Shown here: positions 5,523-56,876 of the stretch, piece by piece
Layout of the letters: each line of letters begins with the position of its first letter
How positions within the stretch are numbered: the stretch's first letter is position 1
From: Folioceros fuciformis
Taxonomy: Eukaryota
Length of the DNA stretch: 64,000 bases
Reading direction: 5' to 3'
Assembly: GCA_049999805.1 (NCBI GenBank)
Contig: JBNGIO010006348.1
Location: 29,821 to 93,820, forward strand
The notes under the pieces: model-generated
The model's database searches: none
What the model was told of the DNA's origin: nothing
What the model saw: the letters and a program-made list of their open reading frames with translations, nothing else
Made by a program: the position numbers and the translations under genes

Positions 5523-7461
5523 ATGAAGGTCCAGGGACGCAAAGCTAAGGCGGTGGACGAGGATGAGAGGAGGCTGAATGAGCTGGGATACGAGCAGCAG
5601 TACAGGCGTGTGATGAGCCCGTTCGAGCAATGGGCTTACACCTTCTCCTACACCGCGCCTCTGGGATTCGTGACCGGCTACTACGGCTACATGTACTCCT
5701 ACGGCGGGCCTGTCACCATTTTCTGGGGATTCCTGGCCACCGCCATCGGCACTCTCATGATGGCGTTTGCAATGTCGGAGGTGATCAGCGCGTATCCCAC
5801 TCTGGGGAGCGTGTATTACTGGGTAGCCCAGCTGGTGCCCAGGAAGCACGCTGCCTGGTCTGCCTGGTTCGTGGGATGGGTGTATCTGGTGGGTTCCTTC
5901 TGTGGAACCGCCTTGAACGAGTACCTGCTGGCGCAGCTGGTAGCCACCATGATCCTGCTGGGAACCGGAGGGGCGCAGGGCGGGGGATATCAGCTTTCCA
6001 ATGGTCAGGTAATTACACTAACAAGTTTCACCAAGGCCAAGGTTTGTTTGTTACAGTGCTGCACCTGCTCTCTCGCATTGGTTCATGTCAGCTCGGATTG
6101 GATGTCATGTATCATGGCAGATTGCAGGCGTGACCGCGGGGCTCTTTTTCTTGCACTTCTTCGTCAGCATTGTGAGCACCAGGTGGCTGGGTCGGCTGAG
6201 CTCAGCGGGCGCCTGGTTCCAGATCATGTCCATCGTGGCCATCGTGGTGACGCTACTGGTCATCTCCCCCAAATACCAGAGTGCCAAATTTGTGTTCACG
6301 CATTTTGTGAAGTCGCCAGGGAACGGGATCCAGTCCGCGGTGCTAGTTGTGCTGCTGGGCCTGCCTTACTTCCAGTCCATTCTGACGGGGTTTGAGGTCG
6401 GGTCGCACGTGGTGGAGGAGGTGACCACGGCTGCCGTGGCTGGACCCAGGGCCATGATCCGCTCTGTCTACGTCACGGCTGGGGTGGAGGTCGTGCTTCT
6501 GCTTGTCATGACCTTCTGCATCCAGAATCCGGATAACGTGCTTGGGGAGGATACCGCCACTGGTGACAAACAGCTTGAAGTTTGCATTCCATAGCAGATA
6601 GCTGAGCTCTTCAACCCGTGTCTGCATTCCTACGATCTGGTCTTAAGAGTTGTTAAAATTGACAATGTGCAGGAGGAGGAGACACGTCTGCTGGAAGCCA
6701 AGTCTTCTACGATGCCTTCCACGGAAGGTTCGGAGACGGCACAGTGGGATCCGTTGCCTTCACCGGGCTCGCTGCAATCTCTCTCTTCTTCGGGAACATC
6801 ACCAATGTCACCCTTACAGCCAGGATGGTAAGCCAGTGTTTAGGTGAAGCACATCGGTGGCTGTGCCAAGCCAGGATCCGGATAATATGCTTGTTCTTGT
6901 CTGATTTTGTATCTGTAACAACATCATCTGCAGATCTACGCCATGGCCCGAGATGTGGCGCTCCCCTTCCACGCTCACCTGGTAACGCTGACTCCGGTCC
7001 ACAAGATACCAGTAAATGCCACAGTAGTGACAGTCATCGGCTCCTTCGTCTGCACGCTGCCCAGCCTCGGGAGCAGTGTTGCCTTCACCGCCATCACAGC
7101 CATGTCCACCATCACCGCCTACGGGCCGTACACCGTCATCCTGGCCTGCCGGCACATGTTCAACAACGGCTTTGTGTCGGGGCCCTTCTCATTGGGCCGG
7201 TGGAGCATCTTCATTGGAGGGTGGGGAGCACTGTGGGGCGCCGCCATGTCCATTCTCTTCTGCTTGCCTCCTGAGTATCCAGTCACCGGCTCCAACCTCA
7301 ACTACGCCGCCATCAGCATGGCTGGATGCATCGGCTTTGGTGTCGTCTACTGGTTCGCTGTGGCAAAGCACCAGTTCCAAGGTCCCAAGCGCGTGGTAGA
7401 GCAGGACAACGCCGATCTGGAAGCAAGCTTACGACGCCGGCTGGCTGCGGGACTGAAGTGA
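5523..7461 (+). CDS. APC-superfamily amino acid/GABA permease (BAT1/ACT-like), 4 exons
   Basis: DERRLNELGYEQQYRR, YGGP...WG, MSEVISAYPTLGSVYYW, ARMIYAMARD.ALPF, GPFSLGRW, NLNYA, FQGPK. Introns 6009-6120, 6563-6672 and 6828-6933 join the ORF fragments in frame. Confidence 0.92.
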
Positions 7462-19843: not shown

Positions 19844-21790
19844 TTAGGGATCGTCTTTGCTGAGAGTCTGGGGGGCGGGAGGAGCCATTGGTGCAGGGCC
19901 AGAAGAAAACTCCGGCTCACTCACATGGTTAAACACGTTCAGGAGAGACGGAGGATCATGGCACAGGGGAGAGCGTGGGGTGCCTGGGTTCAGGGGAGAC
20001 GAAGAAGCTTCGTGCAAGGAAGCCAGTGAGGTGCCTGGGAAGGTGACTCCGTGCTTGCCAGAGCTGCTCCTCACGAAGAACTTGTCGTCCTTGATGTCGT
20101 AGTACTCCGCAGTTCGGACCTCCTGGCAGAGGGAGCAGAATGGGAGGAAGAACCACGAAGCGCAGTCTGTCAACCTAGGGTTCCTGCAGCACCAGGTTCT
20201 TGGGGGGAGGTTGAAAGTCTCTCGCATTCTGATCCTCCAGAACCCACCGTACAGCAGCCCAAAGACGCTGAGAGCAATCCCTGCACCACCGATGCCATGC
20301 CTGACATAGTAGTTGTCTAGGTTGATGGCAGCCAAATCGAAGATCCAGAAGGGGGCTGTGAGGAGAAGAACAAAGGTGACGATGTGCACGTAGCGGTTAC
20401 CGAATCCCAGCCTGTCCACGTTCCATCCGAACACGCACACAAAGCACACGAAGGAGAGGAGGGAGATGCCAGGCTCCATGTTCCAGTCCCATAACCCACC
20501 TTTCCACTGCGGGTTCTGCACCTCCTGATCCTTGCCTCCCTCCCTCTTGGCAAAGGACATCCTCTTCTCCAGAAGCCGGAAGTTCATGATCCCGATGTCG
20601 TACAGGGACGTCTCGCTCTCCAGGTGGACATTGCCCTCACCCTTCTCCAGCTCGGATGCCAGCCTCGAGTATTCCTCATCATCGAGTGCCACGAACTCCC
20701 GCCCCAGAGGACTCAGGCTGTTGTATATCCCTGCTGCAGCAGAACAGCCGATGGCAACGCTGAGGCACACTGCCACTCCTATGGCAGGCCGCTCCGACCT
20801 CTTGTAGCCCCAATTGAGCCCACACAAGGAGTACTGAGCAAAGCAGTTGAGGTGCAGCAGGCACACCACCACTGCGATGTGAAACCACTCGTGCAGCTTG
20901 CGGGTTCCGTTCTTGCAGTATGCCTTCCTCATCTTCACAATATCCCGGGGCTCCCAACGGTAGAGCAAATAAGAATGGTAGAATCTGGTGGGATGCAGGT
21001 ACAGGCACATGAGAGTGAAAAGCGCATTGAGAATCTGGTTGTTCACCTCGAACCAAGCATCCCTATCCTTCTTCTTAGGCAGAGCATGGTTCAGCATGCC
21101 CACCATGACCATGAACAGAATAGCCCCAGAGATCGCTACAGCCGAAATCCACACCAGAAGAGCCAGGTTCTTGGGGTTCCAAAGCCATTCCCTACTCTGC
21201 TGCTTCACAATCTGCCAGTCTATGTTCCCGAGCCTATGAATCCCGTCCTTGATGCGACTGGAGAAGGAATGTGACTCGGAAGGCGTTTTCCTGGAGACCT
21301 CCTCCTTGGCCTCCGCCAGGCGCTTGAAGGTGGCGGACGGGGTCAGCAGGCTTCTCTTGAACGGGGATATCTGAGACCCCGCTGCAGACTTAGCCGGCGA
21401 GCTCCCAGTGAAGGCAGAGTCCAGATCCCGGGACCTAAAGGGAGATCCTCTGAACGGAGATACGCCTCCCCCGTTCCCCAAGACAGAACCAGGTAGCAAG
21501 GGCGAGTTGGTCCGGAATGGCGACCGCAGCGGGGACCTGTAAGGAGAAGTCCCCTCCCCTGGAAGAGGAGACAGTGTGTCAGAGAGCTCCGAGTACCCGG
21601 ACGGCGCATTCTTCACCGACAAGCCGGATCCCTTGCTGCCAGCAGACGCAACGGAGCTGTTAATGCCCTCATCCTCCTCCTGCAGAAGGCCCTTCCGGGA
21701 AGCGGACTCCGACAGAGAAGCATGAGACTGAGCTCCCCTGCTTCCGCTAGAGTCTTCAGGCTCGTCGCCTGGGATCACGATTCTCGGCAT
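19844..21790 (-). CDS. DUF2985 + PLAC8 family membrane protein, single coding exon
   Basis: ORF of about 648 aa: SP-rich N-terminus, NPKNLALLVW, EVNNQILNALFTLMCLYLHP.R, QWKGGLWD, RIRMRETFNLP, CSLCQEVRT. First ATG at 21790. Confidence 0.88.
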   Translation of the reverse strand: MPRIVIPGDEPEDSSGSRGAQSHASLSESASRKGLLQEEDEGINSSVASAGSKGSGLSVKNAPSGYSELSDTLSPLPGEGTSPYRSPLRSPFRTNSPLLPGSVLGNGGGVSPFRGSPFRSRDLDSAFTGSSPAKSAAGSQISPFKRSLLTPSATFKRLAEAKEEVSRKTPSESHSFSSRIKDGIHRLGNIDWQIVKQQSREWLWNPKNLALLVWISAVAISGAILFMVMVGMLNHALPKKKDRDAWFEVNNQILNALFTLMCLYLHPTRFYHSYLLYRWEPRDIVKMRKAYCKNGTRKLHEWFHIAVVVCLLHLNCFAQYSLCGLNWGYKRSERPAIGVAVCLSVAIGCSAAAGIYNSLSPLGREFVALDDEEYSRLASELEKGEGNVHLESETSLYDIGIMNFRLLEKRMSFAKREGGKDQEVQNPQWKGGLWDWNMEPGISLLSFVCFVCVFGWNVDRLGFGNRYVHIVTFVLLLTAPFWIFDLAAINLDNYYVRHGIGGAGIALSVFGLLYGGFWRIRMRETFNLPPRTWCCRNPRLTDCASWFFLPFCSLCQEVRTAEYYDIKDDKFFVRSSSGKHGVTFPGTSLASLHEASSSPLNPGTPRSPLCHDPPSLLNVFNHVSEPEFSSGPAPMAPPAPQTLSKDDP

Positions 21791-22311
21791 CCCGACCAAC
21801 CTCCCTGCTCGTTCTCTCCGCGCTCCCGCACCTCACATTGCTCTAAGCAGGAACCTGCAGAGGCACATGATTTCGTCACAAGCCCTACAGCTAGCGGAAT
21901 TCAATTTCCACCTAGCTCACCTGTGAGCACCGCAGGCAGCTGGGGCAAGGAACTCAGCAAATGTTCTTGCAATGGCGCTCATCCCCACAGCCGGTCTACA
22001 TCCGCGTCCCGCCTCGGACATTGCCCAGCATCAGTCCCTTCCCAACCGAATCCCAAACGATGAAGGAAATTGGATGCCGTGAGTAAACAACGCCAGACAG
22101 TTACCGTTTACCGCGTTTGAAAGCAACCGTATGACAACCAGAGAAAGGAAGCTTGCTGGGACTCGCGTTGAATTGGTGTGCAATGGGAAGGAGACACGCG
22201 GATTGCTGGGATTGCGATGCTTGCTTCTGAAGTCAGCGAAGGAAGGCATATGTCATTTTCTGACCGTGTGAGTTTGTCGGGTAGGCATGGTGAGGTCGTT
22301 GGGTTGGCATC

Positions 22312-23577: not shown

Positions 23578-23680
23578 TCCACTTCCGGGATCCTGCCTTT
23601 GTCATTAGCTCCGAAAGTGGTTCCCAAATGCTTCTTCACGTTTTTTTCCCGCGTTTTTGTTGGGGCAGGAAGATTCTGTC

Positions 23681-26092
23681 ATGCTTCACTTAACACACCT
23701 AGGAGGTATCAGGAGAGATTGCTGCCCCGCTGCGAGCACCGGAGTGTATTGCAGCTGGAGATGGGTTGCGTTGTTTTTCAGTATGCGAGGTATCCGCACG
23801 TTTTCCTCTTTTGGAAGTCCTCTGCAAGACAGTCGAGTTAGGAAGCACCGGCCCTGTTTTGATTCTTACACCTGGGCCGACAGGATTGCAAGCTATTCCA
23901 AGCAAGGGCAGCATGAGGAAGCTATAAGAGTTTATCATCACTTAATGTGTGAGTTGAGAGCCACACCCACAGATAACATTTTTGTTGCAGTTCTGAAAGC
24001 ATGCACCAATTCAGGAGCACTGGTGCAGGGCAAAAGGATCCATTCCCACATCAAGGGATGTGGGCTGGAATCAAACGTCTTTGTGGGCAGTACCCTTATC
24101 GACTTTTACAACAGATGTGGGATGGTTATGGATGCACGTGAGGTTTTTGATGGGCTGCAAGTTAAAGATGTTGTGTCCTGGAATGTCACAATTGCTGGAT
24201 ATGCGCTGCATGGGCTTGGCCAGGAGGCACTTAAGCTCTTTCACTGGATGCAACAAGAAGGCACACATCCTAATCGAGCCACGTTTCTGAGCGCTCTGAA
24301 AGCATGCTCTGGCACTGCAGCCTTGGAACAGGGCTCACTTGTCCATGCTCATATCAGGGCAAGTCACTGGGAATCTGATCTCCATGTGGGGAATACGCTC
24401 ATTGACATGTATGCCAAGTGTGGAAGCATGAAGGATGCACGTCAAGTGTTTGACGAATTACCTTTTAAAGACACGGTGTCATGGAGTACACTACTGGTGG
24501 GGTATGCTCATCAAGGCGAAGATCAGCAAGCCCTTGAGCTGCTTCAAACAGTGCAACAGGAGGAGGGCGTGTATCCCGACAAGGTGATGCTTCTCAGCAT
24601 TCTGAAAGCATGTACCAACACGAAAGCGTTGGCACAGGGCAAACTAGTTCATGCCCTTGTTCTCAAGTGTGGTCTTGACTCAGATGCCTTCGTTGGGAGC
24701 TGCCTGATTCATATGTATGCCAAGTGTGGACACCTCGATGATGCCCGTGAAGTGTTTGATAGGTTGCCGACAAAAGATCTGGTCTGCTGGACAGCAATGG
24801 TCACCGGGTATGCCCAGCACGGGTGTGAACAGAAGGCCATTGCACTCTTCCAGGAAATGCAACAGGCGGGCATGCATCCCAATACAGTAACTCTTGTTAG
24901 TATCCTGAAAGCCTGCTGTAGCACAGGAGCTCTCGAGCAGGGCAGGCTCATTCATGCTCATATTTTGGGAGGCGGCTTGGAACCAGACACCTTTGTCGGG
25001 AACACGCTTATCTATTTCTATGCAACGTGCGGGATACTTGATGAGGCCTGCACATTGTTTGAACGGTTACCGGTGAGGGATTTGGTGTCTTGGAACGGAG
25101 TGATAGCTGGATGTGTCAGTCACGGTCACGGACAGAGGGCACTTCAGCTCTTTCAACAAATGCAGTGTACTGACGTACCTCCGGATAAAATCACTGTCAT
25201 CACCATCCTGAAAGCTTGCTCAAGTGTAGCAGCTTTGGATCAGGGCAAGTCAGTACATACCCTGGTGACGAAACTCGGGCTTGACTCTGACATCTGTGTT
25301 GCCAGCACGCTCATTGACATGTATGCAAAGTGTGGCAGCCTGAAGGATGCATGCACGGTGTTCCACAGATTACCAACAAAAAATCTCGTCACGTGGAATG
25401 CAATGATTTCTGGTTATGCCCAACATGGAGATGGAGAGCAGGCACTGAGGCTCTTTTCCAAAATGCAGGCGGAGGGCATTAGGCCAGACAGCCTCACTTT
25501 CCTGGCAGTGCTATTCGGGTGCAGTCACGCGGGTTTGGTGGAAGAAGGCAATCGCCTGTTCAAAACTATGTTGAAGGATTCTGACATCAACCCTGAGACT
25601 GGACATTACGCATGTGTGATCAACATTCTAGGTAGGGCAGGCTATTTGGAAGAGGCGGATCTCTTGATCAAGAACTTGCCATTTCCACCTGACATTGCCC
25701 TGTGGATGTCCTTCCTTGGGGCATGCCGAACACATAAAAAAGTGGAGCTGGGAGAAACAGCTTTCCAGTGCCTTGTGCGTTTGGATCCAACAAATGCGTC
25801 TGGCTACATTCTGATGTCAAGAATATATGCTGAAGCAGGCCGGTTCGAAGACAGTGTAGAACTGCGAAAGCAAATGGTGAGGGAAGGTGTTAAAAAGGAG
25901 CCTGGCTGCACCTGGATAGAATTGAGCAATGAAGTGCATACGTTCGTAGTAGAAGACAAGCAAAACGTGGAACGGCAACAAATATATGCCGTCCTTGACA
26001 GTCTCTGGCGGGCAGTTGAAAGGGATGGAATGAACACAAGCACAGCAGATTTGCTGGACGACCGGGTTCCACAAAGTGGAAACCTAAGTTAG
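23681..26092 (+). CDS. PLS-class PPR protein, E/E+ type (PG box present, DYW deaminase truncated); C-to-U editing specificity factor
   Basis: Repeated P-L-S motifs (LIDMYAKCG, VSWN), E1/E2, KKEPGCTWIE...VHTFVVED, ending before HxE. ATG at 23681 or 23783 (MRGIRTFSSF resembles a mitochondrial presequence). Confidence 0.93.
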   Translation: MLHLTHLGGIRRDCCPAASTGVYCSWRWVALFFSMRGIRTFSSFGSPLQDSRVRKHRPCFDSYTWADRIASYSKQGQHEEAIRVYHHLMCELRATPTDNIFVAVLKACTNSGALVQGKRIHSHIKGCGLESNVFVGSTLIDFYNRCGMVMDAREVFDGLQVKDVVSWNVTIAGYALHGLGQEALKLFHWMQQEGTHPNRATFLSALKACSGTAALEQGSLVHAHIRASHWESDLHVGNTLIDMYAKCGSMKDARQVFDELPFKDTVSWSTLLVGYAHQGEDQQALELLQTVQQEEGVYPDKVMLLSILKACTNTKALAQGKLVHALVLKCGLDSDAFVGSCLIHMYAKCGHLDDAREVFDRLPTKDLVCWTAMVTGYAQHGCEQKAIALFQEMQQAGMHPNTVTLVSILKACCSTGALEQGRLIHAHILGGGLEPDTFVGNTLIYFYATCGILDEACTLFERLPVRDLVSWNGVIAGCVSHGHGQRALQLFQQMQCTDVPPDKITVITILKACSSVAALDQGKSVHTLVTKLGLDSDICVASTLIDMYAKCGSLKDACTVFHRLPTKNLVTWNAMISGYAQHGDGEQALRLFSKMQAEGIRPDSLTFLAVLFGCSHAGLVEEGNRLFKTMLKDSDINPETGHYACVINILGRAGYLEEADLLIKNLPFPPDIALWMSFLGACRTHKKVELGETAFQCLVRLDPTNASGYILMSRIYAEAGRFEDSVELRKQMVREGVKKEPGCTWIELSNEVHTFVVEDKQNVERQQIYAVLDSLWRAVERDGMNTSTADLLDDRVPQSGNLS

Positions 26093-32407: not shown

Positions 32408-32627
32408 AACGAGTTTGTTGATCGGTGCAAGAAGGGCATGGCTGCCTTTCCCGGAACCAAGCGCCAGGCAAGCGCCTCAGTGAGGCCTGCTGTGTACGTT
32501 GAGCTCTGTGCGACTCTGCATCGTTTTTCATTCATGCTGATTCTCTCCAGTGTGGGATGAGTGATTTTTTGCCGAATTTGTGTGGCTAAAGGAGGAGACT
32601 GGTAACAAACTGAACTCCTTTTGGCAG

Positions 32628-34770
32628 GAAGAGGCGGAGGACAGTTGACAATGTGAAGGGGGCTACTAGGGTTGCCGTGAAGGATGGCAAGCCGGGCCGA
32701 GGCTCACGCAAAGGAAGCCTGGCTCAGTCAAAGAAGCCTGTTCGAATACAGGGCAAGGCAGACGGTGGTAATCCGGGGGCTAAGAGAAAGTTTATCAAGG
32801 GCTCTGATGCAGGTACGGGGAAGGAGAAGGGGGCGGGGTGTTCCAAGGCCAAACAGTTTGATAAGAAGGAGTTGTCAAATGTACGGGGATCGGCTCCGAA
32901 GTGGAGTAAGGCTTCCGCTGCGGACGGAAGCAAGTCTGACTCGGCTGGCAAGTCCCTACAGGATCGGAAAGCTAGGAAGGAGCTGACGGAAGCTCGGAAG
33001 AAACGGCGAAGGGTTCACTATGATTTGAAGAAGGAGGTGGTGGCGATATGGGAGAAAATGAGGGCGAGACATACCTCGAAGGAGGAACGTCGGCAATTTG
33101 CGTCGGAAGCCTTGGGGATGATGAAAGGAAAGATGGTGGCGCTGGCATTGGGCCACATCACTTCCCGAGTGTTGCAGTGTTGCGTGAAGTACTGTTCCAA
33201 CGAGGAGCGCACTGCGGTTTACGAGGAGCTGCGACCGCATTGCCTGACCTTGGCCCGGAACACGTATGCGTATCACCTGGTTACCAAAATGTTCGACCAT
33301 GCAACGAAGGATCAGACTGAGCAGATGATTGCGCAGTTGCACGGGCAGGTTGTGGCGTTACTCCGTCATCCTAGTGGCTCAGCTGTGGTTGAACATGCTT
33401 TTAATCTGGGGAACAAAACTCAGAAGCAAGAGTTGTTATCTGAGTTCTACTCCCCGGAGTACCGGTTATTCAAGGGTATCTTAATTTCAGGCTCAGGTCG
33501 GATAGCAGATGTTCTAAAGGCGGAGCCTTCGAAGAGGAACACTGTTTTGCAGCATATGACCTTGTCACTACAGCCTATTTTGGAGAAGGGTATTGTCGAT
33601 CATTCCATAGTCCATAGGGCTGTGCTTGAGTATTTCAGCATTGCCTCGAGACGGCTAGCAGAGGATGTGGGTCAACAGCTCGCTGGTCCTCTGCTGGTGC
33701 GTATGATTCATACCAAAGATGGGGCCGAGGTTGCAGTGATCTGTGTCATGCGAGGAAACACGAAAGATCGGAAAAAGATCGTGAAGGGTCTGAAGGGACA
33801 CGTGGGTAAAATTGCCCGGGAGGAGTATGGTCATGTGCTATTGCTTGCCATTCTAGAGGTTGTTGATGATACAACACTCGTATCGAAGTTCGTCATCAAG
33901 GAGCTGGTGAAAGAGCTGAAAGATTTGGCCTTGGACAAGTATGGACGTAGAGTACTGTTACAGCTTTTGGCACCGGGGGTACCCCGCTACTTCCCGCCGA
34001 ATGTGCTTGGGCTTCTGCAGGCACCCCGGGAGTCTGATCAAGCGCTTCAGGGATCTGTCTCTGGGACATCAGTTGAAGTGGAGAAGGGGGCGGATGCCGA
34101 AATGAAGGACGTCGACGAAGTGAAGCAGGATGTGCGAAAAAACGATGCAGCGAATGGTAATCAGGATGAAGATGAGTTCGAGGAGGGTGGGCAGGACAGG
34201 GGAGCAGGAATCAGTAAAAAGGATCCAGAAGTGAGGAGAAAAGAACTCTTAGTTGACAGTGGTCTCGCCAAGAGCCTCACTCAAACGTGCATCGAGCACG
34301 CTGGTGAGCTTATGAGATCACCTCTTGGTACAGACGTTCTTTACGAGGTGGCCATGGCCGGGTTGGACGGCATGCTTTGGTCACCCCTTGGCGGACAACT
34401 TAGTGATTTGCATCAAGCCATTGCCAACCTCGCCGCCGTTTCTGAGGATGCACAGGCCACGGGAGAGGAAAGCGAGGAAGAGCATGTATTGGTGCAGTAT
34501 CATGCCAGCAGGACGCTTCGTCGACTAGTCCTGAACGCGAAACCACCACCCGAGGGGACCAAGGCGCCATCCTTTGCCAAGACGTTGTGGTCAATTGCGT
34601 TGCAGGGTCGGGCCAAGAAGTGGGCACAGGGGTACGGTGCTAGGGTGGTTTCTGCCTTCCAAAACTGCGCTGATCCGCCTGCGCAGGACGCTGCGAAGCT
34701 CGAGCTGCAGAAACTAGTTGACGCCGGTAATTTACCCGCTCGAGGCGCAGCTCCAAGTCGAAACAAATGA
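32628..34770 (+). CDS. PUM24: Pumilio 24 / Puf6 / PUM3-like nucleolar RNA-binding protein with CPL domain; the start lies in an unresolved upstream exon
   Basis: Lys-rich N-terminus, WEKMR, HITSRVLQCCVKY, LLRHP, EFYSPE, MIHTKDGA, KDRKKIVK, VVDDT.LV.K, DKYGRRVLLQLL, SKKDPEVRRKEL. Splice acceptor at 32626-32627. Confidence 0.88.
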
Positions 34771-36897: not shown

Positions 36898-39722
36898 TTA
36901 ATCTCTGTTGCCAAAAATCTTGGTGCTCCCGGACCACCAGTCTATGACGTGTGAAGTCTTCGCTTCCAGGTCTCCATACGGGTTGGCAACGAATGGGGAG
37001 GCTACTTCCTTCAGCGTGCAGGCGATAGCCGCCCTTTTAGACAGAGGAAGCTGCTTACTCGTGGCCTTACCATGCTTAGAGTTATCGCTGACCTCTTCGT
37101 CAGCTTCAGCACCAGATCTTCCAGTGATTATTACCATTTTTCCTGCACTCGCACGGTTTGCTGCTTGGCTACATGCTTCCTCTAGCCAGTCCAAGATGGC
37201 CACATGGGCTGCTCCTGTAGATAAGCATCTCACATCCAACAACCACTTTGTCTCGGTGAAGGATGGGAGCTTGTACCAGTGAAACAAACTCCGTGCTCGA
37301 AGCACAACCATCTTTGCCTTTGCTGTTAACCCTTGCTTCCACAGAACGTCGGTGATGGCATTGAGCAAAGAGCAGTTTTCCTCTGCCGTCCTTCTAGCTA
37401 CCCACTTCTCCAACAGACTAAGAGCTTGATTCCAACAATTGTCTGCATCCGCAACATGTGCCTCCGTATCCACACTATTGTGTGGAACAACAAGCAACTG
37501 GTGCAACAACCTGCAAAATTCCAAGTTGCTGCCTTTCATTGCTCTGGCCAAAGGAGCTACCTCACTTCCAACATCTCCATATGCTGCGGATAATGCAGCA
37601 TACCCAGCAAAGTCTGGTTCCATCCCTTTGCTCTCCATTTCAGTCAAGATTTCAGCTGCACTCGAATACCACCCGCCAGAGACGTACATAGAAAGCAGTG
37701 CCCCGTAGCAAGTTACAGTTACAGCACATCCTGATTTCTTGAGTTCTCCGTAGACCTGCGACGACAGATTCATGCTGTCAGGATTGAGAACAAACGTGAC
37801 GGTTAGCGGCATATGTCTAGATCCAAGCACGGATCAGCCAACTCACCGCGTGCCCTTTCTTGGTCCAGCCACGGGCTGTGTGTGCATGAATGAGAGAGGT
37901 GTAAGTCAGGATATTGGGGCTGACATTGTTCTTAGCCATTTTTTCAACAATGTCATCTAATTCCTGGTACATTCCTATCCTGGTCAACGCGTTTATCATG
38001 CTTGTGTACGTTACAGTATTTGGTCTTAAATTAGAATCAGAAGCCTCAGAAAACAGCTTCATAGATTCTGACGCCAGATCACATTTCCCACATAAATCAA
38101 TCAAGACGTTGTAAGCCATCAGTGTTGGTTTGGTCACCTGCCACAAGATAACATCGGAACCTCACTTAGCTTTGTAAAAAAAACTGCGATGAAAATACTT
38201 CATCACGAACAACGCATACCCCTTTATACTCGCGAAAGACACTGAAAGCCTGATCGCGAGCACCAGCCACGGCGTAAGCAAGTAGGAAGCTGTCATACAG
38301 ATTGGATGTAGCTGGAATCCCATCAGCAATTAGCATGCCCATTAACTCCTCGGCTCTCGCATAGTCCCCTTTAGAACCATACAGTTGCATCAGCTTGCTC
38401 CATATCTGATAAGGTGATCGACGGGAACATTCCATGAGCTAGAAAATGGAGAATTATAAATAGAGCACACAAGGATGCAATCAATGAGCCGCAACCTGCA
38501 CAATGCTGCCCCATGGTCAGCACCTCGCAGCTCACTACACCCATTCGTGCATTAATCATGTGCAACAATAATTGAGGTGAAACTTCCTGTCAAGCGGCTA
38601 AGAGGTAGAAGGCGCAAGAACGTAACCTTCGTGTGAGGAACATGGCTCGCAGTTCTCATAGCCACGAAGACATCTGCGGCAGAACCTGTATCGCCATTGT
38701 TGCAACAGGCATCAATGAGCTGTGTAAAGGTTCTGGCCGAAACTTGAAGTCCCTTCTCATTCATCTCTCGGAGGACTTTCAGTGCGCTGTGTAATTGCGG
38801 CTCTTCTGCATTCAAATGCGCCACCAGCACCTGCAAGCAAACGTAGCATCCTCAAAATCTCACAGCTAGAACGACTCAGCCAGCAATAAGACAAGCAGTC
38901 CAAGCGACCACGACAAACGATCGATCCAATCTGTTTTAGGTCTCACACCCTTTCATGCGTGACATAATCCCGCTGGATGCCTAAGCGATCCATCTCCAAC
39001 ACAACTTCCGAGACTTTCACCGCCAAGCCCCTCGTCGCATAGGCTCCTAACAAGGCATTGTAGAAATATGTGTCCGCCTTCACACTTGCCGCTCTCAACT
39101 CCTCCTCCAGCACCTCCGCCTCCTCAACTCTGCCCTGCTTGCCGAGCACCCCGGCAATACAAGTATACGCCTCCAGCAAATTCAACTCATACCGTTCTAC
39201 GCCTGGCTTCAAAAACTGGCTCGTCTCCTTCAGCACCTGGAAAACCTCCATAGCGTGCGTCCAGTGCTTGTTACCGACGTTGTTCACAACCTTGTTCCAT
39301 TGCTGCAGCGAAAGCTTCTGAATCCAAGGATCCAAGGAACTCCTAACATCAGCTTTGTGCTGGATGGCCAAGATGAGGTCCGCTAAGCTACTGACTTCCG
39401 TCTTTTCATCCCGGGGGGCTGCATTCTTCCTCTCCGAACGGCCCGCCGGTGGAGTCGTCAGAAGCCCTTGACTGTTCCGCTTGCGCACAGCCTTCGGTCC
39501 CCTCCTCTTTGTTGTCCTTTCTGTTACGACGCAGCTGAGCACATTCAAGGCTTCTGCCTGCAACCTCAGCCTGGTGATAAATTTTGTTCCTGCCGGTCGA
39601 CCGAATCCACGAGGACAACCCAGCCTGGTGATAAATTCTTTTCCTGGAGAGCGACAAAATCCACCAGAACCACTGAAGAACGTCTGCCGCCCGACTGCAT
39701 CCATGGCGGCAAAGGACCCCAT
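36898..39722 (-). CDS. P-class PPR protein with C-terminal SMR domain, probably plastid-targeted
   Basis: P-type repeats (FYNALLGAYA, TFTQLIDACC, AYNVLIDLCGK, TYTSMINAL) over several exons. SMR motifs LDVRCLSTGAAHVAILDWL and IITGR. Confidence 0.88.
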
Positions 39723-40135
39723 TGCACAGACAGCTAGGGACTGAAACGCCGGTTGTCCAAAACGACGATAAGTGGACCAGATTTTTATTCGTTTCCCTTT
39801 CCATGCTATAAAGTTGCGAGGTTTTACGACTTCATTTCCCACGAAAATAACTACATCGCTTTCTACCCGATGGGAAGACAACGAGACGAACCCCAAGGTG
39901 AGGCAAATATGAGAGAGTAACCACGGTTAAACAACGGACCATAAAACCGATAACAAATTAGTGAAAACTCAGAACTTGGACGATTATGCCGATAACTAAT
40001 AGTGAAAACTCAGAAATTGGCAAAATTAACGAAGATTCTCTCTGAGAGAATCTCAGAGTCACAGATTCCCTTTGGGCCTAGAGGCACCAGCGAACTACCC
40101 CTACATTGCTCCCAGCTGATTTCCAGCCACCCATC

Positions 40136-41021
<886 letters not shown>

Positions 41022-41197
41022 GGTGCAAGCGACAGAGTCGGCCGAAATCGCGAGGGCAACAAAAGATAGATCACGACTTCTGGGTTCGAAGGGAGGTAAG
41101 CGTAAAGTATATAGGCTACTTGTACTATTTTCGGACTCGTGCTTAGGGCTCGGAATTCCTCGTGACCTAAGCTCGTTTTATATATATTGTATATGCA

Positions 41198-41340
41198 ATA
41201 TTGGTATCCCGTTCCGAAATCGGTAGCTGCTGTGTATGCCATATTGGTATCCCGTTCCGAAATCGGTAGNNNNNNNNNNGTAGCTGCTGTGTATGCCATA
41301 TTGGTATCCCGTTCCGAAATCGGTAGGTGCTGTATATGCC
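41198..41340. repeat. 43-bp tandem repeat (at least 3 copies) spanning a 10-N assembly gap at 41270-41279
   Basis: Unit ATATTGGTATCCCGTTCCGAAATCGGTAGCTGCTGTGTATGCC on both sides of the gap. Confidence 0.9.
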
Positions 41341-41383
41341 ATACCAAATGGATGGATGGAGGATACTCTGAGCCCTTGGCCCG

Positions 41384-44300
41384 ATGACGCGTTGGAGCAA
41401 TGTGGCCGTGTCGAGTTTGGTTCGCAGGAAGTCGGCTCTATCAACATATTTGGATTACTACCTCAGACATATGTCATCTTTACAGAGCGGGACGGGACAA
41501 GTGCTATCTACTGAGAGTTACCGTAAGTTCCTGGATGTATGCTGGATAATCTCACCCTTTTCGGTAACTGTTTTCTGGATGTGAATTTGAGAATCTCTCA
41601 AATTGGTGTAGCTGACCTGCAGTGGATCCAAGCGCGAGGTCTGTATGGGCAGACTTTGTGGGCGATTCTTCACGGTGGCGGGCTAAAAGGGTGGATTTTC
41701 GGGATAGAACAGGGGAAGTGATATGGGTTGACCCGCAGACGTTGTGGGTAGGAGAAAAATCAGCACAGGATGTTGATTCCTGTAGGATATCGGGACAGGT
41801 TGCCGAATCCCAGGGAGCTGACAAGTCTGAGCTTTTGAGGTCCCAGACTCACCCGCCGGGTTGTTTCTTTGGTGTTATCTTGCTCGTTGGCTGGTTGTGA
41901 CAAGTCATCTAAATTTTGCAGGTTGAAGGAGGCAGTGGAAGAGCTGGACCGTCTGGTACAGCAAGGGTCGTTTATTCCGGATTCCCTGTTTTACAGTGTT
42001 CTGAAGGGATGTACTGTGGGGAACGATGTGCTTGTGGGCAGTCGTGTGCATGGCCTCGCTGTGAAAAGTGGAAGGGTCTCAAATACATTTGTAGCCAATC
42101 ACATTGTCCGGATGTATGCCTCTCATGGAAAGTTGCTGGAGGCGACGCAGGTGTTTAACAGACTGGTTACGAGGAATGCCTTTTCGTGGTTTTCAATCAT
42201 TGTGGCACATGCTGATAATGGCCAGCCTGAGCAGGCTATGAGGCTGTATCAACAGATGTGGCAATCGGGAGTGCAGCCCAACAACCATATTTTTGCTGTG
42301 GCCCTCAAAGCATGTGCCAATGCCGGGGATTTGCAAGCTGGCAAGCTGGTCCATGCAGATGTTTTGTTAAGTGCAGTTGAGCCTGATTTGTTTGTTGGCA
42401 ACAGCCTGGTGGACATGTATGCAAAATGTGGCAGTTTAGATGATGCTCGAAGAGTATTTGACAGTCTGCCTACCCGAAACACAGTGACATGGAACACCAT
42501 GCTTGCAGGATATGCTCAGCATGGACTAGCTCAACAGGCCCTTAATTTGTACTCGTGTATGCAGAAGGAGAGACTCACTCGAGCCAATAATGTTACATTC
42601 GTCTGCCTCTTGAAAGCGTGTGCTGCTGTTGGATGCTTGAAAGAGGGGGAATCCCTTCATTCTCAGCTTCAAGAAAGCGGGATAGCCATTGATATTGTTC
42701 TTGGCAACTGCCTGATAGACATGTATGCAAAATGTGGCAGCCTAGACAATGCACGCAAGGTTTTTGACGAATTGCCTACACGGGATGTGGTAACATGGAA
42801 TGCCTTGATAGCAGGTTATGTTCAGCACAATGATGGGAAAGAAGCTCTTGCTCTTCACAAAATCATGCAGGAGGATGGAACTACTGAAGCCAATCATGTC
42901 ACATTTGTATCCGCCCTGAAAGCATGTACACAGATGGGTGCACTATCTGAGGGGAAGGAGCTGCATTTGCAGATTCAGAAAAGAGGACTGGACAGTGATG
43001 TTACAGTAGGCAACTGCCTCGTGGATATGTACACCAAGTGTGATAATTTAGAGGATGCTCGCAAAGTGTTTGAACGATTGCCTACTAGAGATGTGGTCAC
43101 ATGGAATAGCATGATCGCAGGCTATGCTGAGCATGGCCAGGGTCAAGAGGCCCTTGTTCTTTACAAGAGGATGCAAGTGGAAGGCCAAATCCCACCTAAT
43201 CAGGTCACTCTTGTTTGTGCTCTAAAATCATGTGTAAGTGTGGGAGCTTTGCATCTTGGGAAGCAGCTCCATGTCCTCATTCAAGAAGAAGGCCTGGAAG
43301 TGGATGTGATTCTTGGTACCTCACTAGTGGACCTGTATGCAAAACATGGCAATTTAGAGGATGCCCGCAGAGTGTTTGATCGACTAGCCTCACGAAACTT
43401 GGTCACATGGAATGTTATGATCGCAGGCTATGTGCAGCACGGGCTTGGCCAAGAAGCTCTCAGCCTTTATGCATGTATGCAACATGAATCTGTGACCTCA
43501 GATCATGTGACGTTGGTTTGCCTGCTCAAAGCCTGTGCCAGTGTTGGAGCTCTCTGTCAGGGGCAACAGTTTCATATCCAGGTAAAGCAAAGGGGCTTGG
43601 AGGGTGAACTTGGAAGCAGCCTGGTGGACATGTATGTAAAATGTGGGGATTTGCAGGCCGCTCGTGAAGTGTTCAATAGATTGCACACCAAGGATGTAGT
43701 TACCTGGACTGCTCTCATGAATGGGTATGCTCAGCATAACCAGTCCCAGATGGCAATCCTGTGTTTTCAAGAAATGCAGGAGCAAGGAGTTGTCCCTGAT
43801 GCTGCTTCTTTTCTCTGTCTTCTCCTGGCGTGCTGTCATGATGGCCTTGTGAACGAGGGCCTGCAGTACTTCAGGGCGATGGTGGAAGACTATGGTATCG
43901 TACCGTCTATCTATCACCACACGTGCATGGTTGACCTTCTTGGGCGTGCAGGCTTCCTCGAGGAAGCAGAAAACATGTTGCATAAAGAGTCACTTGTGAC
44001 CGACATTGGGGCTTGGATGTCTTTGCTGGCTTCATGCAGAAGCCACAGTGATGTAGAGCGTGGAAGGCGATGTTTCGATCGTATAGTGAAGTTGGAGCCC
44101 CAGAACGCCGCACCATATGGGCTTCTGACGGACATTTACACAAATGCTGGCAGGTGGAGAGATGTGCACATGGTGGAAAGTCTGAGAAAGGTAGCGGGTG
44201 CATGCAAGAAGCCTGCCCGCGCCTGGATTGAGGTGAATAACAAGGTGCACTCCTTCATTGTGGGAGAAGAGAGGGCTGACATTTCCTCCAAGCTCAAGAG

Positions 44301-44601
44301 TGTGAATATGAAGTTGGAGGTAGGTGGTAATGTCCAACACACGGACCTATTGCTGAAGACACAGGGAGGAAAAGAAGATGCCTTGTGTGGACATGCTGAG
44401 AAACTGGCTTTAGCTTATGGTTTGTTGAACACTCCGGATGGATCAACTCTTCTAGTGACAAAAAATCTCCGCATGTGCAACGATTGTCACAGTGGAACCA
44501 AGGCCATGTCGAAAGTAGAGAAGAGAGAGATAATTGTTAGAGATGCACACCGAATCCACCATTTTGTAGATGGGTTTTGCTCCTGTGGAGATCGTCATTA
44601 A
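41384..44601 (+). CDS. PLS-class PPR protein with DYW:KP (DRH-type) domain; candidate U-to-C RNA editing factor, likely mitochondrial
   Basis: KKPARAWIEV in place of the PG box, no SHP motif, GHAEKLA, CNDCH, ending CSCGDRH. Predicted exons 41384-41522, 41623-41824 (or 41839) and 41922-44601 are phase-consistent. Confidence 0.93.
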
Positions 44602-45185
44602 CATGAAGCCGGACAGACTGTCAGTGAGCTACTGAATTTGGCAAAGCTCTGATTATGCTGCAGACGTCTTGCCGGGAAGCTGCATCACTCGATGACTTTT
44701 TACACAAGGATTGCGGGCAACTCGTAAACGATTTGTCACTTAACTATTTCATGCTCGGCTACTTGTCGGACGTACAGGTAGTCTCATGAACTTTCTCCTT
44801 GAACCATTCTAGGACACGCATAAGCTCCCAAGCATTGTCTAAGAGAGAGTATCTTCTAACATTTGAATTTTACAGGAGAGCTTCTCGCTGTGTCTTCAGG
44901 GGCGAGCGAGATGCTATGAATTCTGGTTAAGCAGGTACGAGTCTCGGACTATTTTACAAGTTAGCACCTGCACACCAACCCTTCGAGCCTTCACCTATAA
45001 CATGGTGTCCGAACTTGACCCCTTCTAACGGCCAGCAATTTCACTGTCTGCACAGGTTGGATCTTTGATATCTGTATTCCTGAAAACGCAGTTCCACCTA
45101 GGTCCCCCAAGTTGGAGCGAATGTTGTGGCCGGTTCTAACTTTTGATTCGTTTAACCCCAGAGGGTGATGTAGAATGGAAATAGC

Positions 45186-47308
45186 TTACCTCTCCGGACC
45201 TGCCCAGAAGTTTTTTTCTTTCGGGCCAGTGGGTCCTTCCTCTCCTCCGAGCTCACCTGGAAGCTTGTCAAGGAGATCGGTCAATGAGTTTCTCAGTTTA
45301 CTCGGCAGGGCTGAAAGCAGTTTGTCAAGCTCAGTCCTGAAATCATATTGTATCGAGGGGCCCCATTGTCTCATGTACTGCAACCATGGGGGCTCTTCCA
45401 AGCAACTTTCCACTAGGCCTCTCGCTCCCAAATACTCCATGGACACAATCTGGTATGCTGTGCTAACATCTAGGATAAACTTGCTCCTGGCTGTATCGTT
45501 CCGTATTCCCACCCCGAGAGTACTATCTCCTTGCAGGTTGACACCCTCGTGGGCATATGCCGAATGGCCATTCTTGGAGGAGTACACCACAGGATGGTTG
45601 AGTGAGATGAACTCTAGGTCGCCTGGCTTCAGCCATTGTCCCTTGCTGTGCTCCCCGAAGTAGATCTCCTGCAGCTCCCCATAAAAGTTGCCTATCCTGA
45701 GAGTAAAATGTTCCCAGTCCGACACATGTTCCCCAATTTTGCCCAGGGATAAATTGATCAATTTGATTTTGGCCTTGCTTGCTCCGTTGAAGGGGTAGTA
45801 AATCCAGCATTGGACTTCTGTGGTGGTTCCACCGAACATGGATTTGACGTGCACATACGTTTCAGCCGACCCCAAGTTTCCTTTCTTTACCTCATCGGCC
45901 GTCCCATCGTTCGGTAAATCAATCCAGTATTCCCCGTCGTTAGTCCCTCCAGCTGGTAAATTGGATCCGTCCAAGCTGATCCTCTCAGGGCTGGAAGTCG
46001 AGTTTTTTTTATACAGCAAAGCCCCCTGACTGAATACCCAAGACACGGAGGAAGGGAGGTACTTTTCTTCTGGGTGGAAGAAGACAGTAGGACCATAGCT
46101 CTTCATGAGCCATTGAACCTGCTCCAAAGTTGGCATGGCATGCAGATTCCTGCTCACGTTACTAAGGCAGGTCACTGGAAGTGCATCCACTGGCCCTAGA
46201 CTGGCATCGCTGTAGAAAGTCCCCACATTCACTCCAGTTCCTGTCACGCCCACCTCCAAAGGCGTCACGGTCCAGATTCTAAACGGAGACCTGTTGGAGT
46301 TGGTGCTCCAGAGAGCTGCATCCGCAACGCCGTCCTCCGTGAGATCTGACCGCACACAAACTACTTCTTGGATGTTAGGCTTGGCTTCGGTTGTAGTCAC
46401 CACGTATCCCAGCGTTTTATAACCAGTGGGTGCGACCGGCATCCAAAAGTAAGCAGGGCCACTCTGCTTCCCACTCCATGTGTTGCTGCTCCAGACGAAG
46501 GTGTAGTCGATTGGGCAAGCCAATGGGGAGGCGTCATTCAAACGAACAGGATGTGCCAAAGAGTCACACTCCTGCACTGCAGGAAGGTGCATAGCGCAAG
46601 AACTCAGGCTTCCAAGTGATTCTTATCCCACTTGCAGAAAGACGATCAAAGAAAACTTCACCGAGCCGGCTAAGCTGTGAAATCTCATTTTCTTCCTGCA
46701 CAGGCTACTTCAAAGAAATATCTTACCGTTGAAAGAACTGGTTTCTGCCACCGCAAGCATCCATCCAACAGGCTCGCCGTTGATTTGGCAGTGATGTCCG
46801 AGGCAGAAAAATTCCGAAGGTAAGGACAGAGGCTTGTATACGGCAGCCCCAGAGTTGTTTTGCCCTGGGAAGCTGCTCCAAACCACATCGAGCGACCAAA
46901 TCTGAGTGACTGTAATCTCTCCAAGAGATATAGTCCCAGTTCCAAAGCCTGTTCCTGTTGGATGTGCACAAACTAAAATTCTTGAGAAAGTTGTGGACAT
47001 CAACACCTTCGAAAGAGTTCGTCCCAATACCTTGAGAACAACAAACTAACTAACACTTCACCAAAAAATACCCGACCTGTGCCACCCAACTTTCAAACTC
47101 GCAATCACTGTAGTCCGGAAAACCAGCTTCTCAAGGAAAGCTGAGTGGCATGCCACGACGAAACTAACATGCATGACTTACCCGTCGGCCATTCCGGGAC
47201 TGGTCCGAGCATTCCAGAATTGCTGTTCAACTCCCGTAGCTCCGCCAAGGATGAGACAGTGGTGTTAGATCCTCCCCAGGGCCAGGTTAGGCAGCCACAC
47301 CGCACCAT
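45186..47308 (-). CDS. Vps62-related (DUF946) protein
   Basis: PEWP.GTGFGTGTISLG, YFWMPVAPTGYKTLG, AMPTLEQV, YGPTVFFHPEEKYLPSSVSW, YYPFNG, GEHVSDWEHFTLRI, YSSKNGH, EPPWLQYMRQWGP, EEGPTGPKEK..W.G.ER. Confidence 0.9.
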
Positions 47309-54315: not shown

Positions 54316-56876
54316 ATGGCACTTCTCTTGCCCTCTCAGCTCCAGCAGAGTCAGGTGGCCAAGGTGTCGTACATCGGCTCCTTGAAGCAATCGGAGGCGC
54401 TGCGCGGGCGACGCCGCCGGTCCTGCAAAATCAGAGCGGAAGGTGTGGGTGAGAGCCAGGGGCACTCTGCAGACCAGGCCGCGAGCTTCACTCCGGCGCC
54501 AAAGCCTGTGGACCGGAAGGGGGCGGTGAATCGAGCTGTGGTGGCCGAGAGAGTTGGAGGTGTTGAGGCGCGGCAGGAGGAGAGGTATCCTGGGTATGCT
54601 TCCTGGAACACTGTCAAGCAGCCGAGATGGGAAGGGGAGCTGGAACTGCAGGGAGAAATCCCGAAGTGGCTGGTACGTGACTTTTGTGGAGGTTAAGTAG
54701 GTGTCTTGAAGAAGGCGTGTCGTGAATTGAAGCGGGCTCAGGTTTGCGGTCTTGGTTGCTGATGCAGAGTGGAACGTATCTCCGAAACGGGCCTGGAAGC
54801 TGGAAGACTGGGAACAGGGAATTTGAGCACTTGTTCGACGGGTGAGTGGTGGAACTTTGCTTCTGACATCTGGTGGCTGCAATCTTCATTTCCTTCGGTA
54901 GGGAGTGATGGAGTGTGCGATGTGATCGGCCGCCATCCAGGTACTCAACCCTCGTCCGCCTCCACTTCGACAACGGGAAGCTGGTATGCGGGCACGCGCA
55001 GCTGCAATCGGAGGCATATAAGCAGGCCACCGACAAGCAGCGCCCCATGTACCGAGAATTCAAGGCTGTCCCGGACGGGAACGTGTTCGAGCGGATAACT
55101 GAGCTCGCCGGGATGGCCACGGGCCACACTCTCACCGACAACGCTAACACGGGAGTCATCATGTAAGCTGCCTGCATCCTGCACTCCTACAGCACGCCAC
55201 GCCACCCCACGCTACGGCCACATTCTTCAAGCTTGAAACATTCGTGCTTGAAACTGATTCTTGATGCAGGCTCGGAGACGGACGAGTCCTGTGCTTGACG
55301 GAGACCATGAAAGGGACCATTCAGATTGATCCAAACACGCTGGAAACCATGGGAAAATTCACATACGAGGACGGATTCCAGGTCCTACTCTCGGACTGCC
55401 TTCTTCCATGCTGCTGCACAGCGCCAGCAAACACACCTCCTACTCTAGTCCTAAGGCTTTTTTTTCTCTCATCCATACATTTGAATGGGTGGCCGCAGGG
55501 ACTCGTGCACTCCGCTCATCCCTACGTAGACTCCAAGGAATTCATCACGCTGCTGCCGGACCTGATCAACCCTGGCTACACCGTCGTGCGCATGCCCGCC
55601 GGATCAAACACCAGGCAGCTTATTGGCAGGGTGAGCCACAACACCTCTTCCACCTTCCTCACTGTGTTCCTCACGGCTTGGACCGCATGCGGCAACACTT
55701 TCTTCATTTCTTTTGGCGCTCCGTCCAGGTCCCATGCAAGGGCAAGGGCGCCCCGGGATGGGTGCACTCCTTCGCCGTGACGGAGAACTACATCGTGGTA
55801 CCGGAGATGCCACTGCGCTACTCCGCCATGAACCTCCTCAAGAGCGAGCCCTGCCCGTACTACAAATTCGAGTGGCTCCCTGACAGCGGAGCCTACATGC
55901 ACATCCTCAACAGGAAAACCGGCGTCCTGGTAACAAATTCTGCCACGCCTCTCCAATGCTCTTCCACTTCTCACCCGCCCTTCCCCGTCCCTCACTCCAC
56001 CACACTTGCTCAGGAAGCGTCAGTGGAAGTTCCACCTTTCGTCACCTTCCACTTCATCAACGCGTACGAGGAGCCCGCGGAGGACGGCAAGCCCGCGAGA
56101 GTGATCGCGGACTGTTGCGAGCACTACGCTAACCCTGTCATTCTCCAGCGCCTGGAACTCCATGAGCTCCGAGCTTTCCCCGGCAAGGTTCTTCCCGACG
56201 CCAGGTACCGTACCACATTCCATCCCTCCCTCCTCCTCCTCTTCCTCCTCTTCCTCCTCCTCCTCCTCCTCCTCCTCCGCTCTTGTCATAAGTGCATGGA
56301 CTCACCCTTTCCAAACCGCATGAATCCGCAGGGTTGGGAGGTTCACCATCCCGCTCGACGGGTCCAGCAAGGGCACATTGGACGCGGCTGTGCCGCCAGA
56401 CGCGCACGGCAGGGGCCTGGACATGAACACTATCAACGACAGCTTCAAGTCCAAGAAATATCGTTACGTCTACGCATCTGGAGCACACCGCCCTTGCAAC
56501 TTCCCTAACAACCTAGTGAAGGTGGATTTGGTGGACAAGAGCGCCAAGACGTGGTACCACGACGGCGGCATCCCCACTGAGCCATTCTTCGTTCCAAGGC
56601 CCGGCGCGACCGAAGAAGACGACGGTTTGTACTCCCAACCGAGCCCCCTTCCACCCCGAGCCAAAACGGAACGGGACCAAAGCCCTGCAGGCTCTCAGCA
56701 CACTCTACCGTTCCGTTTCACTGTGCGCAGGCGTGGTTATATCCCTTGTGAGCGACGACAGCGGCGGCGGCTTCGTCATCCTCTTCGATGGCCAGACGTT
56801 CGAGGAGATCGCCCGAGGGGACCTGCCCTACGGCCTGCCCTACGGACTGCATGGATGTTGGGTGCCAACCAAGTGA
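54316..56876 (+). CDS. CCD8: Carotenoid cleavage dioxygenase 8 (strigolactone biosynthesis), 9 exons
   Basis: WEGELELQGEIPKWL, GTYLRNGPG, HLFDGY, LTDNANTGV, HSAHP, PGWVHSF, TFHFINAYEE, GAHRPCNFPN, EPFFVPRPGATEEDDG, PYGLPYGLHGCW. All four iron-binding His motifs are present. Confidence 0.96.
56225..56278. repeat. (CCT/CTT)n microsatellite in a CCD8 intron
   Basis: A run of CCT units with two CTT interruptions. Confidence 0.9.

Follow-up and report, generated by a model that had tools for sequence, protein, structure and literature searches.

A three-exon gene for a putative U-to-C RNA editing factor of the DYW:KP (DRH) type in Folioceros fuciformis

Enzymatic uridine-to-cytidine (U-to-C) RNA editing has, to our knowledge, no candidates other than proteins with a DYW:KP domain, which are under development as programmable base editors. 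One of their subgroups, DRH, is said to date back to Gerke et al. 2020. The KP domains of hornworts comprise the DRH and GRP subgroups, while those of tracheophytes cluster separately (PMC9478123). In Escherichia coli, three of seven designer proteins were active in U-to-C editing, namely KP2 and KP3 (GRP type) and KP6 (fern type), and the activity of designers required the HAE and CxxC motifs (PMC9478123). A lysine-Schiff-base mechanism has been proposed for the reaction (PMC11332814), in support of which Lys88 mutants turn to cytidine-to-uridine (C-to-U) editing (PMC11845758). In this study, we analyzed a stretch of 64,000 nucleotides from Folioceros fuciformis (contig JBNGIO010006348.1; the whole stretch is called the window) and followed up an earlier interpretation of it made from the letters alone, the sequence-only reading, which had placed a gene for a pentatricopeptide repeat (PPR) protein with a DYW:KP domain of the DRH type at positions 41384-44601. 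It had described this variant as confined to hornworts, lycophytes and ferns and as linked to U-to-C editing, which agrees with PMC9478123, PMC11845758 and PMC13386178.

We consider it likely that the locus is a three-exon nuclear gene encoding an organelle-targeted PLS-class PPR protein of 1011 amino acids with E1, E2 and a DYW:KP domain of the DRH type, which by analogy would edit U to C. The assignment to the DYW:KP (DRH-type) class is supported by every sequence feature of this class that could be checked. The long open reading frame runs from stop to stop over 41839-44601 of the forward strand and comprises 920 residues with the C-terminus ...CSCGDRH*. It indeed has no ATG at its start, as had been noticed before, and the first Met follows only near residue 91. 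The sequence-only reading had staked itself on two small upstream exons being spliced on to this frame. A contig of 873 nucleotides from the public run X1 aligns without a mismatch to 41367-41522, 41623-41837 and 41920-42421 in contiguous coordinates of its record. Because this mismatch-free contig joins both upstream exons to the sequence from 41922 onward, we regard them as spliced on. Three more X1 contigs with 0 differences each cover 42405-44700, and the run contains 91% of the sampled words from 41290-44700. Since one of its contigs is devoid of both introns, X1 was treated as transcript-derived. The joined coding sequence (41384-41522, 41623-41839 and 41922-44601) has a length of 3036 nucleotides, and its sole stop codon is the terminal one. 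An in-frame TGA stop codon at 41369-41371 is located five codons upstream of the ATG at 41384 and inside the X1 contig. The gene is composed as follows:

41384-41522, forward strand: coding part of exon 1, 139 nucleotides, with the ATG and a basic, Ser/Thr-rich presequence of 46 amino acids; the X1 contig extends to 41367.
41523-41622, forward strand: intron 1, 100 nucleotides, GT..AG, absent from the X1 contig; donor ACC/gtaagt, acceptor ctgcag/TG.
41623-41839, forward strand: exon 2, 217 nucleotides, entered in phase 1 and left in phase 2; amino acids 47-119, linking the presequence to the first PPR helix.
41840-41921, forward strand: intron 2, 82 nucleotides, GT..AG, absent from the X1 contig; GAG/gtccca, ttttgcag/GT. 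The junction is ambiguous by 2 nucleotides (the aligner gave 41838-41919), with the same mRNA either way.
41922-44601, forward strand: coding part of exon 3, 2680 nucleotides including the TAA stop codon at 44599-44601; the transcript contigs reach at least 44700.

The first 46 amino acids contain 5 Arg or Lys, 14 Ser or Thr and 2 Asp or Glu residues, the first acidic residue being residue 24, a composition that fits mitochondria or plastids alike. The N-terminus supplied by the upstream exons had been described as Arg/Ser-rich and mitochondrial-looking. Of this description, the basic, Ser/Thr-rich character holds for exon 1; exon 2 codes for more than a presequence, and the composition does not tell the organelle. 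A Pfam search with the peptides of exons 1 and 2 gave nothing above noise (top hit DUF6894, E 0.13).

Within the 920-residue frame, Pfam recognized PPR repeats (E 2.9e-98), an E motif at residues 736-798 (E_motif, 7.5e-14) and a DYW deaminase domain at residues 842-918 (DYW_deaminase PF14432, 6.2e-32). The C-terminal domain and its key elements, numbered in the spliced protein, are:

44209-44598, forward strand: DYW:KP domain, amino acids 882-1011, 130 residues from the Lys of KP; delimited by Pfam, structure alignments and the model.
Amino acids 882-886, forward strand: KPARA, which replaces the PG box.
44392-44400, forward strand: HAE, amino acids 943-945, which replaces HSE.
44461-44463, forward strand: Lys966, the active-site lysine.
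44476-44490, forward strand: CNDCH, amino acids 971-975, opposite CGDCH.
Residues 998, 1005 and 1007, forward strand: His998, Cys1005 and Cys1007, key residues of the domain.
44590-44598, forward strand: DRH, amino acids 1009-1011, the C-terminal triplet.

Among solved structures, the closest relative was 9kfx, a synthetic PPR-DYW protein of the canonical PG type, and the C-terminal domain was also matched by OTP86 (7o4e) and DYW1 (7w86). Alignment with the structures 9kfx and 7o4e (OTP86) bore out the features of this domain that had been picked out by eye. KPARAW stands opposite (k)ePGcSW, so that KPARA takes the place of the PG box; a gap of four residues lies opposite SHPQ/SHPE, where SHP had been noted as missing; HAEKLA aligns with HSEKLA, which confirms HAE for HSE; the intact CxxC is found in CNDCH, aligned with CGDCH; and the terminal DRH faces DYW. 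The four-residue gap corresponds to the absent xHP of KP domains (132-133 versus 136 amino acids), relatives display the same KP box pattern, and the HxE(x)nCxxC signature of PLS-E1-E2-DYW proteins is present as HAE and CNDC. From HAE to the C-terminus, the alignment with OTP86 has no gap and matches H892, E894, K915, C920, C923, H924, H947, C954 and C956. In OTP86, H892, C920 and C923 are the ligands of Zn1, E894 is the catalytic Glu, K915 is a DYW-specific lysine, and H924, H947, C954 and C956 are the ligands of Zn2 (PMC7611903). Because of the gapless alignment, we equated the corresponding residues here with these ligands, the Glu and the Lys. The columns that are invariant among 66 aligned KP and PG proteins include H943, E945, K966, Arg969, C971, C974, H975, H998, C1005 and C1007. 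Lys966 is equivalent to residue 88 of DRH-type relatives with 133 amino acids (numbered from the first Lys of KKPA), and Lys88 is essential for U-to-C editing (PMC11845758). Judged by these alignments, no zinc ligand is missing, and the catalytic Glu and the U-to-C lysine are present as well. For E1-E2-DYW, an AlphaFold model was built from an alignment (mean pLDDT 87.4) in place of a poor single-sequence model (pLDDT 37.1), and its top structural matches were 9kfx, 7o4e/7o4f and 7w86.

Upstream of this domain, the protein carries motifs of the PLS class:

41923-44004, forward strand: PLS-type PPR tract, amino acids 120-813, 21 motifs according to Pfam PPR families and the motif table.
44005-44208, forward strand: E1 (amino acids 814-847) and E2 (amino acids 848-881), from Pfam E_motif (7.5e-14) and the motif table.

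Motif boundaries were set by anchoring on the repeat pattern. The tract begins with a partial P1 motif that is interrupted by intron 2, continues with L1 and S1 and then with five full triplets of P1-L1-S1, and ends with P2-L2-S2. With motif lengths of 31-36 residues, this is the arrangement of the PLS class (tandem triplets of about 35, 35 and 31 residues ending in P2-L2-S2). The residues at the fifth and last positions of the P and S motifs are, from the N- to the C-terminus, NN, FN, NN, NN, ND, NN, ND, NN, TN, ND, SD, TD and TD. In the usual PPR code, ND stands for U, NN for C or U, TN for A, and TD or SD for G. Applied to these residues, the code predicts the binding motif 5'-Y-?-n-Y-Y-n-U-Y-n-U-Y-n-A-U-n-G-G-n-G-3' with S2 at position -4. 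By analogy with PMC11845758, position -1 would be a pyrimidine. The by-eye residues of the final S and P motifs (TN, ND, SD, TD, TD) were thereby reproduced, and with them the earlier prediction of A-U-n-G-G-n-G ending at -4 after a pyrimidine-rich stretch.

We infer the U-to-C activity, the target and the organelle import of this protein. The presequence of exon 1 would import the protein into mitochondria or plastids, where the 21 PPR motifs would bind one RNA stretch with one nucleotide per motif and S2 at -4. The zinc deaminase-like domain at the C-terminus could then act on the pyrimidine that follows at a distance of four nucleotides on the 3' side. Going by the active KP designers, the reaction would be U-to-C: Lys966 would attack the uridine at C4 with the help of Glu945 and of a zinc ion held by His943, Cys971 and Cys974.

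For the comparison with relatives, we used the 120 listed matches to the C-terminal 221 residues. Among these, HAE occurs in 38, a DRH end in 9 (all within the best 15) and a GRP end in 4, and the lower matches are HSE/PG/DYW proteins from seed plants and others. The best of the matches listed is 66% identical, the best named ones being from Diphasiastrum (53%) and Adiantum (47%); no hornwort-named protein was among them. When the first PPR motifs (residues 29-230 of P0001) were compared with shorter proteins, an orthologous N-terminal fragment was not found among the 241 matches, the best of which was 46% identical. A maximum-likelihood tree of C-terminal domains was calculated with 56 rows, i.e., this protein and 55 of the relatives P0002-P0062; P0012, P0030, P0035, P0050, P0053 and P0054 (odd tails, long inserts, duplicates) and all relatives beyond P0062 were left out. 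In this tree, the canonical DYW clade has a support of 100/99 and the KP-type clade, with 39 rows, of 97/96. A fern-type group including the Adiantum row (100/96) is set apart, inside the KP clade, from a group of 30 rows (92/93), which contains every DRH and GRP row including this protein. Its row lies, without further resolution, at the base of the 30-row group and outside the core DRH cluster. Three Diphasiastrum proteins (P0024, P0026 and P0029) are of a mixed type: They have KKPA(R/Q)AW-like boxes, but keep xHPQ, show HVE and terminate in DYY, DFF or DFY, and they were placed on the PG side of the tree, not with the KP clade. They are reminiscent of the lycophyte KP4 class with 136 amino acids (PMC9478123).

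Copies of the locus with about 90-93% identity across 42723-44700 were present in run X2 from a related organism, in pieces with 61, 46 and 45 differing letters in 925, 630 and 478 window bases, respectively. The last piece spans 44223-44700 of the window (478 bases) with 479 record letters. As the only listed indel of X2 falls at 44619, behind the stop codon, the reading frame appears to be kept in X2, too.

Several observations weigh against a functional U-to-C editing factor. The three designers (of seven) with activity in E. coli do not include the DRH-based KP1 (PMC9478123), and no DRH-type domain is known to be active. With the first Lys of KKPA as residue 1, the domain has 131 amino acids and is thus 2 residues shorter than relatives with 133, in the loop before HAE; this same loop accounts for the only low-confidence region of the model (amino acids 925-941, model residues 113-129). 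In the PPR tract, position 5 of motif P1-b is occupied by an unusual Phe, and the last L1 and S1 motifs (L1-f/S1-f) meet at a junction that is 2 residues short. The RNA label of run X1 is a guess only. Furthermore, 40 of the 152 X2 differences were analyzed, a partial list and indicative at most, in which 24 of the 36 altered codons are non-synonymous and 12 synonymous; because of this proportion, the comparison suggests either weak constraint on the gene or a paralogous copy in X2. The inactivity of KP1, the 2-residue deletion, which lies in the loop corresponding to the gating region, and the frequent non-synonymous changes would also suit a DRH domain that is not catalytic alone. The protein would then be an RNA-binding specificity or stabilizing factor needing a partner enzyme, or a decaying member of the family. 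We regard this as unlikely: none of the catalytic and zinc-binding residues has been lost, the spliced frame is open over 1011 codons, and a failed consensus design says little on natural proteins.

An editing factor acting C-to-U, or in both directions, in place of a dedicated U-to-C factor is quite unlikely as well, even though its zinc site and catalytic Glu are those of cytidine deaminase. Designer KP6 had both activities in human cells (PMC9478123, PMC11845758), and replacement of Lys88 makes KP proteins efficient C-to-U editors (PMC11845758). However, Lys966, HAE and the KP box, all present here, mark proteins for which solely U-to-C editing was reported in E. coli, and the nearest relatives belong to the hornwort-type DRH/GRP group, whose GRP designers KP2 and KP3 displayed no C-to-U editing (PMC9478123). 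Very improbable indeed is an unexpressed pseudogene, or a coincidence in which the upstream exons were mis-modelled. PPR families are rich in retro-copies (PMC13386178) and the guessed label of X1 leaves room for such a view, but in the X1 contig precisely two GT..AG intervals are missing, which leaves a single frame without stops or frameshifts. Because this spliced frame is open over 3036 nucleotides, pseudogene and chance reading frame were rejected as explanations.

Beyond the editing factor itself, exon 2 contains a stretch that resembles the PDF motif of OSB proteins (PMC6963530), for which a motif of about 50 amino acids with the conserved pattern W..FF.dPsqWWDnR...PDFKHK...LW was used as criterion:

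41640-41738, forward strand: weak PDF-motif-like stretch, amino acids 53-85, with W-x-D-F ... W ... DFR-x-R-T-x-E-x-I-W-V.

It is about 8 residues shorter than intact PDF motifs, and the Pro of P-D-F is absent. BLASTP of exon 2 against the N-termini of the relatives P0009 and P0017, where the motif precedes the PPR tract, gave E values of 0.004 and 0.005. The motif also occurs in P0033 (amino acids 108-168), P0034 and P0039, and exon 2 is collinear with these N-terminal copies. A profile built from 45 PDF copies gave the full protein a weak score of 6.5 bits, which 3 of 2000 shuffles exceeded; among 1601 six-frame segments of the window, the exon 2 frame was the best (12.1 bits, E 0.012). The PDF copy of P0033, a Diphasiastrum protein, had 39 matches among shorter proteins (P0122-P0160). 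PPR domains were found in 24 of them, from Sphagnum, Calypogeia and Diphasiastrum, and 8 of these also have DYW; an SSB domain was found in 3, one of them named OSB1 (Linum, E 1.3e-17), and 12 have no Pfam domain. An intact PDF module stands ahead of the PPR tract in numerous PPR and PPR-DYW proteins from Sphagnum, a liverwort and Diphasiastrum, and in KP-type relatives. An ESM Atlas search with the PDF region of P0033 returned no usable match. The literature search retrieved no paper in which 'RNA editing' occurs along with 'PDF motif', and none in which 'DYW' and 'PPR' both do; the sole paper with 'PDF motif' and 'pentatricopeptide' treats them in unrelated contexts. Exon 2 may, as a tentative and more doubtful proposal than that on the gene as a whole, be a decayed trace of the OSB-type PDF motif, a module binding single-stranded nucleic acids. 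If true, plant editing factors would have an ancient architectural element that has so far not been described, a PDF module before the PPR tract, and this gene would show the module being lost.

The window represents gene-dense eukaryotic nuclear DNA with about 50% GC and roughly one gene per 5 kb. Upstream of the PPR gene, a 43-bp tandem repeat (41188-41330; 1.9 copies, 94% match) breaks off at an assembly gap (41270-41279, 10 N), continues beyond it and lies 50-200 bp 5' of the start codon, in the presumed promoter. Exon pieces of a gene for the cytosolic ribosomal protein uS19/S15 (40302-40996, reverse strand; Pfam Ribosomal_S19, 3.1e-17) are arranged head-to-head with the PPR gene, and a promoter region shorter than 400 bp is probably common to both genes. 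On the other side, a convergent gene of the Vps62/DUF946 family (45189-46622, reverse strand; Pfam E 5.3e-187) has its frame end about 590 bp past the PPR stop codon. A second PLS-class PPR gene is located at 23609-26092 on the forward strand, with an 827-codon frame and an E motif. Because its protein ends soon after an intact PG box (KKEPGCTWIEL...), without an HxE/CxxC centre, it was assigned to the E+ type, a PPR class described as enriched in hornworts in one paper. Further genes identified by Pfam encode an amino-acid permease fragment (5463-6392, forward strand), a DUF2985+PLAC8 protein (19847-21832, reverse strand), a PUF/CPL (Puf6-like) protein (32614-34767, forward strand), pieces of a P-class PPR gene (36901-39926, reverse strand) and a carotenoid-cleavage-type RPE65 fragment (55330-56505, forward strand). 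These neighbors indicate a compact gene spacing. Together with the DRH end and the E+ PPR neighbor, this density of genes suggests, from the sequence itself, that the host is a hornwort.

Judging from its sequence, the gene is apparently ordinary and functional. It belongs to a large, well-described family that is numerous in hornworts, and it is probably one among hundreds of such genes in its genome. Current views are not changed by this locus. Its main value is that of a natural DRH-type gene usable as a test case, since a validated exon structure, expression evidence from X1 and a predicted binding motif are in hand.

Compared with known systems, the protein is closest to the hornwort DRH subgroup and its designer KP1 (Ichinose et al. 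2022, PMC9478123), with which it shares the KP box, the lack of xHP, HAE, CxxC and the terminal DRH. Unlike KP1, it is natural and full-length with a tract of 21 motifs of its own, and its domain is slightly shorter than those of its relatives, as described above. With KP2, KP3 (hornwort GRP) and KP6 (fern) it has the domain class, HAE and CxxC and the equivalent of Lys88 in common, whereas these designers have other C-terminal triplets, belong to other subclades and carry synthetic PPR tracts, and their activity has been measured, while the protein described here is known from its sequence. In comparison with the OSB-type PDF motif, intact copies of which are N-terminal in PPR and PPR-DYW relatives, exon 2 would hold a shortened and degenerate trace with 6.5-12 bits. 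The DYW:PG factors, i.e., OTP86 (7o4e/7o4f), the synthetic PPR-DYW protein (9kfx) and DYW1 (7w86), share the PLS-E1-E2-DYW architecture, the fold, both zinc sites, the Glu and the Lys, but differ in the PG box, in SHP, in HSE and in the terminal DYW, for which this protein has KPARA, a gap, HAE and DRH. The reaction expected here by analogy would be opposite in direction to their C-to-U editing.

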